Source: an uncultured archaeon
GTDB lineage: Archaea; Micrarchaeota; Micrarchaeia; Micrarchaeales; CABMGC01
Assembly (NCBI GenBank): GCA_963830445.1
Contig: CAWHMC010000005.1
Location: forward strand, 12,357-76,356
Direction: 5' to 3'
DNA length: 64,000 nucleotides
Shown: positions 3,806 through 60,988 of the stretch, one piece after another
How the letters are laid out: the number at the start of each line of letters is the position of its first letter
How positions within the stretch are numbered: position 1 is the first letter of the stretch
Notes under the pieces: generated by a model
What the model was told of the DNA's origin: nothing
Database searches by the model: none
Seen by the model: the letters and a program-made list of their open reading frames with translations, nothing else
Program-made: the position numbers and the translations under genes

Positions 3806-6571
3806 CTAATTCCTTTTCCAGAACCTGCTGTTTCTTATGAACAGTCGCTGCGCTCTCAGAAGATCCTCAAAGAACATCTTCTCGTTCTTGCGTATTATCT
3901 TCAGCAGCTTGCCTGCCGTAGATAAGCCTATGCCATAGGTCAGGAAGGCCATCAGCGCCCTGTCCCCATAGGCGTCCACAAGGCTCGCCTCTTTGATTAC
4001 GTTGGTGTAGGTCTCGCGCTCCGAGTTTGTGAATCGTTTGCCTTCCTTCTTCTTTGATAGAACGTCGTAGTACTCCTGTTTGTAGGTCGAGACCATAGGA
4101 CTGCTGCATCGCATGCAGAGGATCTTATCCTGATCTTTTTTGTTAGGTGTGATAGTCCTGGAGAAGGTGAAAGAGCAGTAGGTACAGAGCAACTGCACCG
4201 ACTTCCCTGAGAGCTTGCGTTTCAGCTCCTCAATGTCGGTATCGGCGATGTCTGAACCTGACATGAGCTCCCGGTATCCCAGCGCTGAGTGCAGGAGCTC
4301 GCGTGAGAGTGGTGAGCCTGATGGAACTCGCGATATCTCGATCTTGCCTGCGCTGAGACCGCTTAGGAAGGATGAGACTGTCTCGTAGTCTATGTAATTC
4401 TTCTTTAGGTCGCGCACCGTCTCATCGTAAACAGGAGTGCCACGGTAAAACTCGATGAGCCGGTTGAGCGCGCTCTTGGTGAGGACGGCCTTCTTCTCGG
4501 CTATGCCGAACAGCTTCGCCACCTGGGCGAACTTGTACCTGAAGAGCTCCGAGCCGGCCATTATCTCGCCTGAGGAAGCGAGCGCATCGGACTGGGAGAG
4601 TGCACGGAACGTTTTCTCCGGATCCGGCCTCTTCCTTGTGAGCTTTAGGTCAAGTATGATCGCGTAGGGAGTAGGTCTGACTGAGATCTCACCGCCAGCC
4701 TTTCTAACAGTGTATGCCAGAGCCCGTGAGATGAACTCGTTCGCCAGCTTCCCCAGCGGCAGGTGGAGTATGGTATAGTCATCTAGCTCCTCTATGAGGA
4801 GCCGGTTGCCTGCCGGAATGAAGAAACGCTTCTGCTTTTCTGTGAAGAGGTGGATTGCATCGTACGAAGCGGGCTCTATCATCTCTTTTGCGCTCTCAGG
4901 ATGGGCTAGGTAGGAGACTGCACTCTCGGCTATCAGAAACGAGACCGGGATGTCCTCCCCTTCCCAATCTGGTATTGAGGCTTCCACCTCCGTGCCCTGT
5001 TCGACGAATATGGTGTCTCCCTCTATGCTCACCACCTTCCAGGGCACGCCCTTCGTTATGAAAGAGGCGTTCTCGTCGATATTCGCGAACACGAACCGCT
5101 CGTCCAACGTGGAGATTATCTTGTTAGTCGATGCCCGCTTCACGAAGAAGCGCCTTGAGTCAGGTATCACGCTGACGTTCTCTATGAAATAGGTCCTGGA
5201 GCGCCTTCCGAGGGAGAGCATCTCCTTGTTTATCTTTATGAGACCGAGGCTGGCGCAGAACTCTGCCATCCGCATGAACTCGGACTCCTTGAGCTCTGCA
5301 TACGGGGCTGCGCGCTTCACTATTACGTACGCTTTCTGTATGGGAAGCTCCCTGTATTCAAGAACCATCCCGGAGATCTGGTTTGCGAGCACGTCCAGTG
5401 CCATTCGTTCCATTCTGTGGCTCTCGAGCCTTTTCTTCGAGGCTGCCTTTATCGTTGCGGCTGCCTCCAGCGCCTCAATCGCGCTTGATGCGATGATTAC
5501 TCCTTTCGATACGGCACCTTCTCTGTGTCCTCCTCTACCTATCCTCTGGAGCAGGCGGTTCGCCTGTCGTGGAGAGCCGTACTGCACGACCATATCTATC
5601 CTCCCGATGTCTATGCCCAGCTCCAGCGAGCTCGTCGCGATTATGCAGTTTATCTTCCCGTTCTTGAAGCTGTCCTCGATCTGGATGCGCTCTTCCCGAT
5701 CAAGGGAACTGTGGTGTATTCCGACGTAGTCGAAGCCTTCCAGCCTGCTCAGGTAGATTATCTTGCTGCCCAGCGACTCCACCACCTGGCGCGTGTTGGC
5801 GAACACCAGGGTCGCCTTGGAACTCTTTATCATGTCCTCCAGGTACTCGATGCGCCCCAGTGCCGCATCGTCCAGGTCGAAGGAGGCCTCGAACTCGGGG
5901 TGCCTGCGCTGCGGGAGCGTGGGCATGACCACGTGGACATCAAGCCGCTTCTCCACCTCGGAGTTTATCTCCCTGTGCGGGCGCTTCCCGAAGAGGAAGG
6001 CGGCTGCCTCGTCCGCATCCCCGATGGTTGCGCTGATCCCTATGCGCGTGAATCCTGGTGCGCGCTCCTCAAGCCTCTCCAGCCCTATGGAGAGCTGGGC
6101 TCCCCTCTTGTTCTGGTAGAGCTCGTGCAGCTCATCCACGACGACAAATTTCAGGCGAGCGAAGGCCAACCTCAGCCGAGGCGAGAGGAGCATGTTCTGT
6201 ATGCTCTCCGGCGTGGTGATCAACAGCTTGGGGGGATGCAGCACCTGTTCCCTCCGCTCCTTCTGGGATGTGTCGCCGTGGCGCACGCCGATCGTTATCC
6301 CGAGGGAGGTGCAGAGCTCCTCCAGGCGCTTCATCAGGTCGCGGTTGAGCGCGCGCAATGGAGTGACGTAGAGCGCCAGCACTCCCTCGCCTTCTATGCT
6401 GTTTATGGCTTCCAGGATCGGGAGTATGGCGGCCTCGGTCTTGCCGCTGCCCGTGGGGGCCATTATCAGGCAGTTCTGCGCCGAGCTGATCACAGGGAAT
6501 GCGGACTCCTGGAGCGCATTGAGCCTTCCGACCCTCTCGATGAAAAGAGAGCGAGCGCTCCTCATGGTCAC
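3806..6571 (-). CDS. lhr: Lhr-type superfamily-2 ATP-dependent helicase
   Basis: 921 aa. Walker A is APTGSGKTEAA, the DEAH-type box is VVVDELHEL, and motif VI is QRIGRGGHR. A long Lhr-like C-terminal extension contains a Cys4 ribbon (CTYC...CMRC). Confidence 0.85.
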   Translation of the reverse strand: MTMRSARSLFIERVGRLNALQESAFPVISSAQNCLIMAPTGSGKTEAAILPILEAINSIEGEGVLALYVTPLRALNRDLMKRLEELCTSLGITIGVRHGDTSQKERREQVLHPPKLLITTPESIQNMLLSPRLRLAFARLKFVVVDELHELYQNKRGAQLSIGLERLEERAPGFTRIGISATIGDADEAAAFLFGKRPHREINSEVEKRLDVHVVMPTLPQRRHPEFEASFDLDDAALGRIEYLEDMIKSSKATLVFANTRQVVESLGSKIIYLSRLEGFDYVGIHHSSLDREERIQIEDSFKNGKINCIIATSSLELGIDIGRIDMVVQYGSPRQANRLLQRIGRGGHREGAVSKGVIIASSAIEALEAAATIKAASKKRLESHRMERMALDVLANQISGMVLEYRELPIQKAYVIVKRAAPYAELKESEFMRMAEFCASLGLIKINKEMLSLGRRSRTYFIENVSVIPDSRRFFVKRASTNKIISTLDERFVFANIDENASFITKGVPWKVVSIEGDTIFVEQGTEVEASIPDWEGEDIPVSFLIAESAVSYLAHPESAKEMIEPASYDAIHLFTEKQKRFFIPAGNRLLIEELDDYTILHLPLGKLANEFISRALAYTVRKAGGEISVRPTPYAIILDLKLTRKRPDPEKTFRALSQSDALASSGEIMAGSELFRYKFAQVAKLFGIAEKKAVLTKSALNRLIEFYRGTPVYDETVRDLKKNYIDYETVSSFLSGLSAGKIEISRVPSGSPLSRELLHSALGYRELMSGSDIADTDIEELKRKLSGKSVQLLCTYCSFTFSRTITPNKKDQDKILCMRCSSPMVSTYKQEYYDVLSKKKEGKRFTNSERETYTNVIKEASLVDAYGDRALMAFLTYGIGLSTAGKLLKIIRKNEKMFFEDLLRAQRLFIRNSRFWKRN

Positions 6572-34918: not shown

Positions 34919-36430
34919 CTAGTTGACCGTGCCGAAAGTCGCGGTGGGCATGGCTCCGCCGGGCAGCAGGGTGCGCGTGCGTACCCACTCTACATACAGG
35001 TTGACGGTATTAGGTGCGGGGCCCGTCGCACGGAGCGTGACGTTGAACGGCGGCGGAGGGATGTAGGTGGTCAGCGTGGACGGAGAACCGTAATCCCTGT
35101 AGGTAGTGGCGCTGGTGCCGGTGTAATACAAACCGAAGACGTGATTGTAATTGTCATAGGTGTAGCTGTTTAGGGATTGGCTCAGGCCGTTGTAGGCGAT
35201 GAAAACGAACGAGCCCAGGTAGGCGTCCCAACCTACCTTGTACAGGCCCCCGTCTATTCCTGGAGTTGCGAAGAATAGCAGGCTCGTCTGACCCAGTCCT
35301 CCGGAAAGCGATCCGGTGAAGTTGCCGTAGAACTCCAGGACATCGCGCGCTGCGCTGTTTCCGAACGTGTTCGAGGTTGATGAGATGCGGCAGTCGCAGC
35401 CGCCGGTGCCGTACAGCGTTATGCCGTTGTCCACCAGGGAGTTGGCAAATGCTCCTGCTCCGTAGATCCAGTTTGGGCCGGGTACCTGGCCGGCGAAGTT
35501 GTCGTAGAAGCTGAATACCTGGGCACCGTCGTCATACTGGCCGTAGGTGCCGCGGCAGGTCGCCGGGTTCGAATTGCCGCAGGTGAGCAAGGGGGCAAGG
35601 CCCGTCGGTCCCGCGGTTGAGAGCACGAAATTTGGCATGAAGTCCATGTAGATTATGGTGTTGGCGCCGGAGGGGATGCTGTTCGCCACCTTCACCCACA
35701 CTACGGTGTGGGTGGCTGTGCCTGTGGCGTTGCTCTCCACCCAGGCGTTGAGCAGGCTGCCCGTGGCATTGGGACCCGTGGTGAACTCGACGTTAGACCA
35801 GGCGGTGCTGATGGGGTACTTGTAGCTGGGAATGGCAAGCATCTGCTGGTAGTTCGCACCGGTGGGGCTGGCCTGGAAGTTGGTCAGTGTAATCGGGACA
35901 TAATAGACGCGCGTCAGGGTGGTGGCGATTATGGCAGGCGCCTGGACGACCGCGCTCCCGCGCGTGGTGAACGTCTGGGTCTCGGTTGCCGGGTTGCATA
36001 TGTAATTATTACATAGTTTATAGCCCAAACTTAATTGCGGAGAGATCTGTGATCCGGTGCTGGGAAGGAAGTTGCCTGAGAAGGAGGTGCATGAAGCCGT
36101 CTGGCCGGGCTGGAGCACGGAGGCGTTGCATACTCCAGGCGCATAGGTGCCGGAAATAGTTGGTGCTGTGGAGTAACTAGTCAGTATTATGGGTGCATCC
36201 TGTTGGTTTGTGATGAATGTAGTGAAGAGCGTGCCGGTGGTGTTCATCTGCATGGAGGTCTGATAGCAGTTGATCTCTGGGGAGATGTAGCAGTAGGTGG
36301 AGGAGTTGGCGTACTTCTGCTGCGACATTGAGATGTAGTATACGACGCCTACCGCAACCGCTATGATCAGTATCGCCCAGGAGTATTGTATGACGAACTC
36401 CGTAGCGGCCTGTCCCTTTATCTGATCCAT
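34919..36430 (-). CDS. Large (503-aa) protein with a class III (prepilin-like) signal peptide fused to DUF2341-like and LamG/ConA-like lectin domains
   Basis: N-terminus MDQIKGQ/AATEFVIQYSWAILIIAVAVGVVYYI. The DUF2341-like block is YYVPITLTN...WSNVEFTT...LLNAWVES...HTVVWVKVANSIPSGANTIIYMDF. The C-terminal LYVEWVRTRTLLPGGAMP is typical of the associated LamG-like domain. Confidence 0.75.
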   Translation of the reverse strand: MDQIKGQAATEFVIQYSWAILIIAVAVGVVYYISMSQQKYANSSTYCYISPEINCYQTSMQMNTTGTLFTTFITNQQDAPIILTSYSTAPTISGTYAPGVCNASVLQPGQTASCTSFSGNFLPSTGSQISPQLSLGYKLCNNYICNPATETQTFTTRGSAVVQAPAIIATTLTRVYYVPITLTNFQASPTGANYQQMLAIPSYKYPISTAWSNVEFTTGPNATGSLLNAWVESNATGTATHTVVWVKVANSIPSGANTIIYMDFMPNFVLSTAGPTGLAPLLTCGNSNPATCRGTYGQYDDGAQVFSFYDNFAGQVPGPNWIYGAGAFANSLVDNGITLYGTGGCDCRISSTSNTFGNSAARDVLEFYGNFTGSLSGGLGQTSLLFFATPGIDGGLYKVGWDAYLGSFVFIAYNGLSQSLNSYTYDNYNHVFGLYYTGTSATTYRDYGSPSTLTTYIPPPPFNVTLRATGPAPNTVNLYVEWVRTRTLLPGGAMPTATFGTVN

Positions 36431-54026: not shown

Positions 54027-54122
54027 TGGACTCCGCGGGATTTTCGTGCCGTTTGAGGCGGCGATTCGAACCCGCAACCTCCTGCATGCCATGCAGGCGC
54101 GCTGCCGTTGCGCCAGGAGCCC
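54027..54122 (-). tRNA. tRNA-Ala (anticodon GGC) with a 24-nt intron at position 59/60. No encoded CCA.
   Basis: The hand-folded 72-nt mature cloverleaf has acceptor GGGCUCC/GGAGUCC with G3:U70, D stem GCGC/GCGC, anticodon arm CCUGC-AUGGCAU-GCAGG, T arm GCGGG-UUCGAAU-CCCGC, and discriminator A. Confidence 0.85.
54041..54064 (-). other. tRNA intron (UCGCCGCCUCAAACGGCACGAAAA) within a bulge-helix-bulge motif
   Basis: Outer helix is the T stem. Central 4-bp helix is UUCG/CGAA. There are two 3-nt AAU bulges. Inner helix GCCG/CGGC closes a 7-nt loop. Confidence 0.75.
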
Positions 54123-54136
54123 ATTAGCGTGATAGG

Positions 54137-54385
54137 TTATGCTGGTGAGATGAACAGTATGTTGCCTCCGCGCAGAAGGATTACGCCCAGCTTGGCGTGC
54201 ACTGCGCCGCCTTCCTGGAGCTCCTCCGAGTTCTCGAGCACTATGTTCATATGGACGTCGAAGGATTGCACCTTGCCGCGTATGTCGGTCCCGTTCTTCA
54301 GGCGTATTAGCACCTGCTGTCCGATGGCTTTGTTCAACAAATCAAAGGGTCTCTCATGGTTCATGGGCATGGTTTCACCAAACAA
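54137..54385 (-). CDS. Sm-like archaeal protein (SmAP/LSm)
   Basis: RPFDLLNKAIGQQVLIRLKNGTDIRGKVQSFDVHMNIVLENSEE...ILLRGGNILFISP gives the Sm1 and Sm2 motifs. Confidence 0.9.
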   Translation of the reverse strand: MFGETMPMNHERPFDLLNKAIGQQVLIRLKNGTDIRGKVQSFDVHMNIVLENSEELQEGGAVHAKLGVILLRGGNILFISPA

Positions 54386-54988: not shown

Positions 54989-55618
54989 CTATTTCGCCTT
55001 CATCTCCACCTTCGCTTCGAAGTCGGAGAGCTTGTAGTTGAACTCCTCGTTAGACTTTATTAAACCTTTCTCCTTGAGGAACTCTCGGGAGAGGATATAG
55101 TAGATGAGCGAGAGCGATCTGCGACCCTTGTTGTTGCAGGGGATGACCAGGTCCATGTACTTCATCCAGTTGTCCGTGTCGCAGAGGGCAATGATCGGGA
55201 TGTTGGTCTTGTTGGCCTCCTTCACCGCCTGTCGCTCGTTGCGGTTGTCGCTGATGAGTATGATGTCGGGCTCGATGAAGTCCTCCCTATTCGGGTTGGT
55301 GAAGATTCCCGGCATGACCCGTCCGGTTATCACCTTTGCGCCTGTTATCTCGGCGAACTTTGATGCCGCAGCTATTGAGTATATTCTCGATGCGGTGACG
55401 ACTATGTTCTTGGCGTCGTAGCGGGCGAGCATCTTGGCCGCCAGCTTCAGGCGCTGGTCGATGGTCTCCAGGTCCAGCAGGTACAGTCCGTCCTCGCGCA
55501 CCTTGTAGATGTAGCGCTTGACCCCCTGGGTCTTTACCTTGGTGCCGATGTGTATGCCTACCTCCAGGTACTCGTTCTGATCCACCAGCATCTTGTTTTC
55601 TGTAGTCATATTAAGCAC
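54989..55618 (-). CDS. rps2: 30S ribosomal protein S2 (uS2)
   Basis: YLEVGIHIGTKVKTQGVKRYIYKVREDGLYLLDL and PIIALCDTD. Confidence 0.93.
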   Translation of the reverse strand: MLNMTTENKMLVDQNEYLEVGIHIGTKVKTQGVKRYIYKVREDGLYLLDLETIDQRLKLAAKMLARYDAKNIVVTASRIYSIAAASKFAEITGAKVITGRVMPGIFTNPNREDFIEPDIILISDNRNERQAVKEANKTNIPIIALCDTDNWMKYMDLVIPCNNKGRRSLSLIYYILSREFLKEKGLIKSNEEFNYKLSDFEAKVEMKAK

Positions 55619-57187: not shown

Positions 57188-57274
57188 TGCAAGGGGTGAG
57201 ATTCGAACTCACGCATGCACTAAAGCAACTGACCCCTCAAGCCAGCGCATTTGACCAAGCTCTGCCACCCTTGC
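57188..57274 (-). tRNA. tRNA-Leu (anticodon GAG), class II with a long variable arm. No encoded CCA.
   Basis: Hand-folded with acceptor GCAAGGG/CCCUUGC, anticodon arm CUGGC-UUGAGGG-GUCAG, a 16-nt variable region, T arm GUGAG-UUCGAAU-CUCAC, and discriminator A. Confidence 0.85.
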
Positions 57275-60913: not shown

Positions 60914-60988
60914 GCTCCTATCGTCTAGTTCGGCCAAGGACGCGGGGCTTTCAATCCCGCAACCCGGGTTCAAATCCCGGTGGGAGCA
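60914..60988 (+). tRNA. tRNA-Glu (anticodon UUC). No encoded CCA.
   Basis: Hand-folded with acceptor GCUCCUA/UGGGAGC, D stem GUCU/GGAC, anticodon arm CGGGG-CUUUCAA-UCCCG, and T arm CCGGG-UUCAAAU-CCCGG. Confidence 0.85.

Follow-up and report, generated by a model that had tools for sequence, protein, structure and literature searches.

The 64,000-nucleotide stretch of contig CAWHMC010000005.1 analysed here (the window) carries, on its minus strand at positions 54027..54122, what is very probably a genuine tRNA-Ala(GGC) gene with a spliced bulge-helix-bulge (BHB) intron in its T-loop. The complete pre-tRNA-Ala(GGC) gene is 96 nucleotides (nt) long and consists of a 5' exon (54065..54122, tRNA positions 1-59), the 24-nt putative intron UCGCCGCCUCAAACGGCACGAAAA (54041..54064) between positions 59 and 60, and a 3' exon (54027..54040), all on the minus strand. 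The 5' exon comprises the acceptor strand GGGCUCC, the D arm, the anticodon arm with anticodon GGC (54088..54090), the variable loop, the 5' strand of the T stem and T-loop positions 54-59; the 3' exon supplies U60, CCCGC (3' strand of the T stem), GGAGUCC (3' strand of the acceptor stem, with the G3:U70 pair) and A73. CCA is not encoded, A73 being followed by UUAUAC. When UCGCCGCCUCAAACGGCACGAAAA is deleted, the remaining 72 nt give a cloverleaf in silico. Its anticodon GGC, its G3:U70 pair and its discriminator base A73 are the features expected of tRNA-Ala; the predicted splice junction joins ...GGGUUCGAA to UCCCGCGGAGUCCA. ARAGORN calls this spliced form tRNA-Ala(ggc), and G3:U70 is found in all 45 of the distinct sequences aligned below. 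An initial annotation of the window had read the minus strand of 54027-54122 exactly, and its 72-nt cloverleaf with GGC and G3:U70 is confirmed by the fold and by the ARAGORN call.

The unconstrained minimum free energy (MFE) fold of the 96-mer (-44.6 kcal/mol) shows the h-B-H-B-h' arrangement (hBHBh'), with two 3-nt bulges on opposite strands around a 4-base-pair (4-bp) central helix (H) and with both an outer helix (h) and an inner helix (h') present. The outer helix is the T stem, in which the 5' strand GCGGG (54071..54075, minus strand, as are all parts of the motif) pairs with the 3' strand CCCGC (54035..54039) over 5 bp, with a pair probability of 0.98 and 100% pairing in orthologs. The central helix joins the exon strand UUCG, positions 54-57 (54067..54070), to the intron strand CGAA (54043..54046). 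The 5' bulge (54064..54066) is A58 A59 plus U, the 5' splice site being predicted to follow A59 (between 54065 and 54064), and the 3' bulge (54040..54042) is A A plus U60, with the predicted 3' splice site between 54041 and 54040. The intron interior (54047..54063) begins and ends with a C.A mismatch (54063/54047), which encloses the inner helix of GCCG (54059-54062) with CGGC (54048-54051), having a pair probability of 0.72-0.73 and covarying in orthologs, and a 7-nt terminal loop, CCUCAAA (54052-54058). A 59/60 intron with a UUCG/CGAA helix, AAU bulges and a GCCG/CGGC helix had been proposed at the outset, and this unconstrained fold reproduces it. The word "textbook" that had been applied to the motif suits its 3-4-3 core and does not suit the base of h', where the C.A mismatch lies; the motif is near-textbook, its core being joined to an h' that is slightly relaxed. 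Similarly, of the claim that the T arm cannot form before splicing, the disruption of the T-loop stands, whereas the T stem is present in the precursor and serves there as outer helix. When the intron was shuffled, all four central-helix pairs arose in 2.9% of trials; in 200,000 trials, the fraction that combined them with four or more base pairs of inner helix was 1.25e-4.

Relatives of the gene were collected by two routes. A search of a species-level genome collection with the archaeal/eukaryotic-type ribosomal protein uS2 encoded in the window (54989..55618, minus strand), used to locate syntenic loci, returned 61 loci, nearly all of them named Candidatus Micrarchaeota, Micrarchaeia or Micrarchaeaceae, and nhmmer with the 96-mer over these loci found a full-length homolog in ten, syntenic, about 0.9 kb downstream of uS2 and differing in total length. 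An exact 45-nt search of the same collection with the 5' half of the tRNA gave no match. Metagenomes were then scanned with an exact exon 30-mer that is invariant in the window and the ten homologs, yielding 66 more loci. Dissection of the orthologs gave 70 complete genes with 54 unique sequences, of which 51 are interrupted by 13-44 nt at the identical T-loop site and three (from six loci) are uninterrupted and exactly 72 nt long. The exons are almost invariant, with a mean column identity of 93%, and the inserts are unrelated to one another, sharing little besides the motif.

The 3-4-3 geometry is retained in 51 of 51 introns. In 44 of these alleles all four positions of the central helix form standard pairs, and in the other seven three of the four do; after shuffling of the introns, the mean number of alleles with 4/4 pairs was 0.9 and the maximum was 6 (2000 shuffles). 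Position 57 and its intron partner form G:C in 16 alleles, A:U in 28 and G.U in one, and are mismatched in six. For a formal count of pairs, a gapless alignment of 45 distinct sequences was made, with intron interiors trimmed to their first and last three nucleotides. In the proposed register 97.7% of cells are paired, a share that drops to 35-52% if the 3' partners are shifted by 1-3 columns, and the covariation score of 0.159, versus 0.067 for shuffles, was reached by none of 500 shuffles. The central helix, with position 57 covarying, has 96% of its cells paired, with changes on both sides. Compensatory changes occur in the acceptor stem, where all changes are of this kind, in the exon-intron helix and in 3/3 inner-helix pairs tested. 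Introns of 13-16 nt lack an inner helix and are of the bulge-helix-loop (BHL) type; longer introns, that of the window included, have both bulges and an inner helix. The insert-free alleles of L083 and L105 differ by one D-loop base from the predicted spliced tRNA of the window and reach 65.6 bits against the whole of the Rfam tRNA model (RF00005), insert-free alleles in general scoring 65-66 bits.

Several observations weigh against this interpretation. The C.A mismatch separates the inner helix from the 5' bulge; central-helix pair probabilities are about 0.5 in the window sequence; and the 41-nt segment of T arm and intron has a z score of only -1.9, 13 of 200 shuffles folding equally well. 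The exact 30-nt probe partly builds in the invariance of the anticodon arm and of the 5' strand of the T stem, the intron and the 3' half of the orthologs being free of this selection. The 64-kb window encodes no recognizable tRNA splicing endonuclease (EndA) by phmmer or by Pfam scans of its 30 larger open reading frames (ORFs), and no RtcB ligase by the same Pfam scans. The search for a second tRNA-Ala(GGC), which found none, covered only the window and the fetched loci. Finally, cleavage and ligation of this pre-tRNA are predictions from sequence. Since the thermodynamic support is modest, the case rests on comparison with relatives, and this comparative evidence is decisive.

The host can be placed from uS2, which is 80-86% identical to that of Micrarchaeota metagenome-assembled genomes (MAGs), the best match being locus L009 (contig CAWBCT010000005.1, 86%). 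These identities and the names of the matching genomes place the host in the Micrarchaeota, within DPANN, and some DPANN-type lineages had been named in the initial annotation among those known for such introns; conserved gene order supports the same membership. Some of the records examined (L008, DATJMH010000004.1; P0066; L029; P0008; P0056) are labelled "Candidatus Saccharimonadales bacterium" or "Candidatus Marsarchaeota", and Micrarchaeota-type uS2, interrupted tRNA-Ala and epsilon2 EndA occur among them; these labels are probably wrong, or the bins are mixed.

The lineage does possess a broad-specificity splicing endonuclease, as had been anticipated. Six-frame ORFs of the window and of all loci were searched with phmmer, using as probe a Methanocaldococcus jannaschii EndA sequence validated against PDB 1A79 (371 bits, full length); the probe also matches the ARMAN-2 enzyme 4FZ2, at 3e-34. 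In L107, an EndA ORF (4294-5505) lies 3.4 kb from the tRNA-Ala ortholog and aligns over residues 12-384 with residues 14-387 of 4FZ2, the crystallised three-unit (alphaN-alpha-betaC) epsilon2 EndA of ARMAN-2 (498 bits). In the closest relative of the window, a 384-amino-acid (aa) epsilon2-type EndA (P0048; positions 1501-2655 of L129) is encoded at about 424.5 kb of the 659,142-bp contig CAWBCT010000005.1 (contig_20207), on which L009 occupies 397.6-406.2 kb, placing EndA about 20 kb from the tRNA gene. P0048 aligns with 4FZ2 over residues 11-384 (524 bits, partial identity over a full-length alignment); its catalytic residues Y236, H251 and K282 are conserved, as is K161, the lysine of the specificity loop (residue numbers from PMC3488258). 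With the L107 enzyme as query, 1433 database homologs had E<=1e-20; the 120 best of these are about 380-406 aa long and cover 96-100% of the query, and those with names are mostly Micrarchaeota. Full-length epsilon2-type EndA is thus common in Micrarchaeota-like contigs (at least 120 homologs), with further loci at 1501-2667 of L132 and L133. As of 2018, epsilon2 enzymes had been reported only from ARMAN-1/-2 and Mia14 (PMC5829648). The neighbours of EndA in these contigs include an LPG_synthase_TM membrane protein (L128, L129, L131, L132 and L133) and, directly upstream, a radical-SAM Wyosine_form (Taw1-like) tRNA-modification gene (L128, L129 and L131).

By extension from this close relative, the genome from which the window derives would itself encode an epsilon2 EndA; if synteny with CAWBCT010000005.1 holds, the gene would be situated some 14 kb past the right end of the window, with the radical-SAM wyosine-synthesis gene and the LPG-synthase-like membrane protein as neighbours. 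Splicing of the window's intron by an alpha4 or some other type of EndA is unlikely by comparison. The negative EndA search of the window fits such an enzyme, alpha4, (alpha-beta)2 and epsilon2 types all occur in DPANN lineages (PMC5829648), and the strict 3-4-3 core of the window's motif belongs to the near-strict BHB structures that any archaeal EndA can cleave. Against this stand the full-length epsilon2 enzyme whose gene shares a contig with the tRNA gene in the relative with 86% uS2 identity, the uniformly long homologs among the best 120, and the 13-16-nt introns of related alleles without h' (BHL), which need a broad-specificity enzyme (PMC3239211).

The exact position of the junctions is also fixed by the orthologs. 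With AAU at both intron ends, several 24-nt deletions give the same product in the window, and the window sequence taken alone fits four junction registers, so that a real intron with junctions at 57/58, 58/59 or 60/61 might be envisaged. By the established BHB rule, the second nucleotide of a bulge is the last one before the cut (Marck and Grosjean 2003, cited in PMC4090602). Ortholog 5' bulges are AAU, AAA, AAG or AAC and 3' bulges are AAU, AUU, UCU, UAU or AGU; cutting after the second nucleotide of each yields a T-loop of UUCGAAU or UUCAAAU in 51 of 51 intron-bearing alleles, identical to the T-loops of the insert-free alleles. Where the bulges are unequal (AAA with AUU, UCU, UAU or AGU), the consensus UUCRAAU is obtained only by this cut, and shifted registers would yield UUCAAUU or UUCAAAA, unlike the insert-free alleles. 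The orthologs and the BHB rule together therefore fix the junction at 59/60, and the other registers are very improbable.

That standard tRNA scans can miss such genes had been noted at the outset, and this gene is missed or only partly seen by them. ARAGORN reports no tRNA in the unspliced sequence, with its intron option on or off, and RF00005 gives only a local match of 30.3 bits to model positions 8-63, just above the gathering score; that match depends on a different T arm, one with a bulge, and gives the acceptor no pairing. This partial report arises because the intron start UCGCCGC mimics, in the window only, the end of the T-loop and the 3' strand of the T stem with one bulged G (54058-54075, minus strand); the mimicry is not conserved in orthologs. 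The blank ARAGORN result, the partial Rfam match and the lack of an endonuclease gene in the window would also suit a pseudogene, that is, an intact tRNA-Ala(GGC) gene inactivated by a random 24-nt insertion and left unspliced. Such a history is highly implausible given that the exons are almost invariant across the 54 unique orthologs, that the variable insert keeps its 3-4-3 geometry with compensatory changes, that stem changes are likewise compensatory while G3:U70 is never lost, and that there is one copy per locus. The initial annotation had named an intact second tRNA-Ala(GGC) together with no evidence of splicing, or a covariance-model fold contradicting the junctions, as signs against an intron; neither the window nor the fetched loci hold such a second gene, and the alternative arm drawn by Rfam is disqualified by the acceptor strand that it unpairs and by its lack of conservation. 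That the gene functions unspliced through this arm (GCGGG UUCGAAU C-g-CCGC), everything downstream being a trailer, is scarcely credible, since apart from the Rfam local alignment, which builds it, it strands the 5' strand of the acceptor, whose perfect complement GGAGUCC comes after the insert, it is not found in the orthologs, whose inserts start AUUUU, AUGA, UAAAC and so on, and the MFE fold prefers the BHB. Self-splicing (group I/II) and mobile-element insertions were considered and rejected, the insert being only 24 nt (13-44 nt in relatives), whereas such elements have a catalytic RNA core or encode a protein and typically run to hundreds of nucleotides; Rfam intron families have no match in the window at E<=1.

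If the BHB intron is processed as in known systems, the minus strand would be transcribed into a precursor, probably in one transcript with LSm, whose stop codon lies 14 nt upstream. The precursor would fold with the T stem as outer helix and with U54-G57 paired to the terminal CGAA of the intron as the 4-bp central helix, so that the two 3-nt AAU bulges would present the scissile phosphates, with GCCG/CGGC as inner helix. A three-unit homodimeric epsilon2 EndA would cut after the second nucleotide of each bulge, recognising the bulges independently of the tRNA body, to give a 58-nt 5' exon, the 24-nt intron and a 14-nt 3' exon, and an RtcB-type ligase would join the exons into a 72-nt tRNA with the T-loop UUCGAAU, to which CCA would be added later. 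In the systems described, EndA leaves a 2',3'-cyclic phosphate and a 5'-OH, RtcB ligates and CCA addition follows (PMC3239211, PMC3488258, PMC12397907, PMC4090602). Because the central helix uses U54-G57, splicing would have to precede T-loop formation, docking with the D-loop and T-loop modification.

The nearest known system is that of ARMAN-2 (Ca. Micrarchaeum acidiphilum), in which 56% of tRNA genes are disrupted (PMC3239211). Its pre-tRNA-Cys(GCA) has a 13-nt hBH-type intron at 59/60 that is cleaved in vitro by epsilon2 EndA, and its pre-tRNA-Pro(GGG) has introns at 53/54 and 59/60 (PMC3239211). The window shares with ARMAN-2 the phylum, the 59/60 T-loop site, the T stem as outer helix, the T-loop central helix and the epsilon2 EndA family, and the 13-16-nt relatives of its intron are of the same BHL/hBH type as the ARMAN-2 tRNA-Cys intron. 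The window's own intron differs from the latter in being 24 nt long with both bulges and an inner helix, closer to hBHBh'. The isoacceptor, Ala(GGC), differs too, and the organism, at 55% GC, is different from ARMAN-2. Epsilon2 EndA is described as recognising bulges independently of tRNA architecture in PMC12397907, in which a text search showed only tRNA-Ile and tRNA-Cys as substrates. T-loop introns at 59/60 in Micrarchaeota are thus already published (PMC3239211), and the gene in the window is an expected example.

The position 59/60 is listed among recurrent non-canonical archaeal intron sites (PMC4090602). The non-canonical introns of Thermoproteales and other Crenarchaeota follow the same logic of a transplantable BHB and a broad-specificity endonuclease (Sugahara 2008, Marck and Grosjean 2003, reviewed in PMC4090602), but their hosts have a heterotetrameric (alpha-beta)2 EndA with a Crenarchaea-specific loop, whereas the window's lineage has the independently evolved epsilon2 enzyme with an ARMAN-specific loop (PMC3488258).

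Canonical archaeal introns at 37/38 are cleaved and ligated by the same EndA and RtcB chemistry. They share with the intron in the window the 3-4-3 BHB and cleavage after the second bulge nucleotide, but in the window the central helix is drawn from T-loop nucleotides 54-57 and not from anticodon-loop nucleotides; tools that model only 37/38 introns miss the gene. Automated pipelines would report the genome as lacking a required tRNA-Ala(GGC) isoacceptor, a missed-tRNA problem already noted for DPANN genomes (PMC5829648). The current picture of archaeal tRNA splicing is unchanged by these findings, and the comparative set shows that the pairing of a 59/60 T-loop intron with epsilon2 EndA is widespread in Micrarchaeota. 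The series of 51 introns from 13 nt (BHL) to 44 nt (hBHBh'), together with the intron-free alleles, is usable for the study of epsilon2 tolerance and of intron loss.

The 72-nt insert-free tRNA-Ala(GGC) alleles are located at L083 1878-1949, L105 12281-12352, L116 1785-1856, L088 473-544, L120 1231-1302 and L122 3104-3175. In a neighbour-joining tree of the adjacent LSm proteins (74 columns, low resolution), these alleles take four separate positions, each beside intron-bearing relatives, and the window pairs with L009. The pattern suggests that the intron is ancestral and was precisely lost several times, about four times independently, and the locus may record active intron turnover, with 51 different introns at one site that range from BHL to full hBHBh'.

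The gene for the LSm/Sm-like protein in the window (54137..54385, minus strand) has its stop codon 14 nt upstream of the 5' end of the tRNA. The LSm-tRNA-Ala(GGC) pair is conserved in 67 fetched loci, also where uS2 is not nearby, with LSm identities of 60-91% and 10-60 nt between the LSm stop codon and the tRNA 5' end. No obvious TATA-like box was seen in the LSm-tRNA spacer of the window, which suggests that the two genes may be co-transcribed there. It is a good deal more speculative, and rather unlikely, that throughout Micrarchaeota the genes for LSm, an Sm-like RNA chaperone, and the interrupted tRNA-Ala(GGC) are conserved as one transcription unit. The LSm mRNA would then have its 3' end and its stability determined by RNase P, and possibly by EndA at the T-loop BHB, as these process the embedded pre-tRNA; if true, such a unit would link tRNA maturation with the expression of a factor that itself acts in RNA processing. 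The literature, searched for an operon of LSm with a tRNA gene, yielded general papers on SmAP proteins.

In 29 Micrarchaeota loci the interval from rpoN to uS2 holds a second interrupted tRNA gene, with a BHB-type insert of 12-30 nt at 59/60; spliced in silico, it is called tRNA-Pro(AGG) by ARAGORN, A34 being an unusual wobble base for archaeal tRNA-Pro. It is situated about 20-120 nt upstream of uS2 in L001-L008, L011, L012, L016, L017, L019-L025, L027-L030, L032, L034, L035, L040, L043 and L094. In L010, the tRNA-Pro gene (3879-3982) has two inserts, of 17 nt at 53/54 and of 13 nt at 59/60, and is recognised only once the two have been taken out, an architecture that matches the pre-tRNA-Pro of ARMAN-2 (PMC3239211). 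This tRNA-Pro gene is found neither in the window, where the stop codon of RpoN (55620) abuts the start of uS2 (55618), nor in L009.

The tRNA-Ala gene has as neighbours in the window genes for archaeal-type uS2, uS9, L13, RpoN, RpoD and the LSm protein. The remaining genes encode gyrase, Lhr, CysRS, Kae1, RNA polymerase B and A subunits, MetRS, MCM, SHMT, ThyA and DnaK/J, and the rest of the window is an ordinary archaeal chromosome; it also contains a 503-aa ORF at 34919-36430 (minus strand). An Rfam scan of the window at E<=1 revealed no further hidden tRNAs, giving only a chance match to IRES_Bip. Two other tRNA genes of the window are uninterrupted, tRNA-Glu(UUC) at 60914-60988 and tRNA-Leu(GAG) at 57188-57274 (minus strand; 49.7 bits against a gathering score of 29), of which the latter was missed by the gathering-mode Rfam scan and found with laxer filters, in what looks like a filter artefact.

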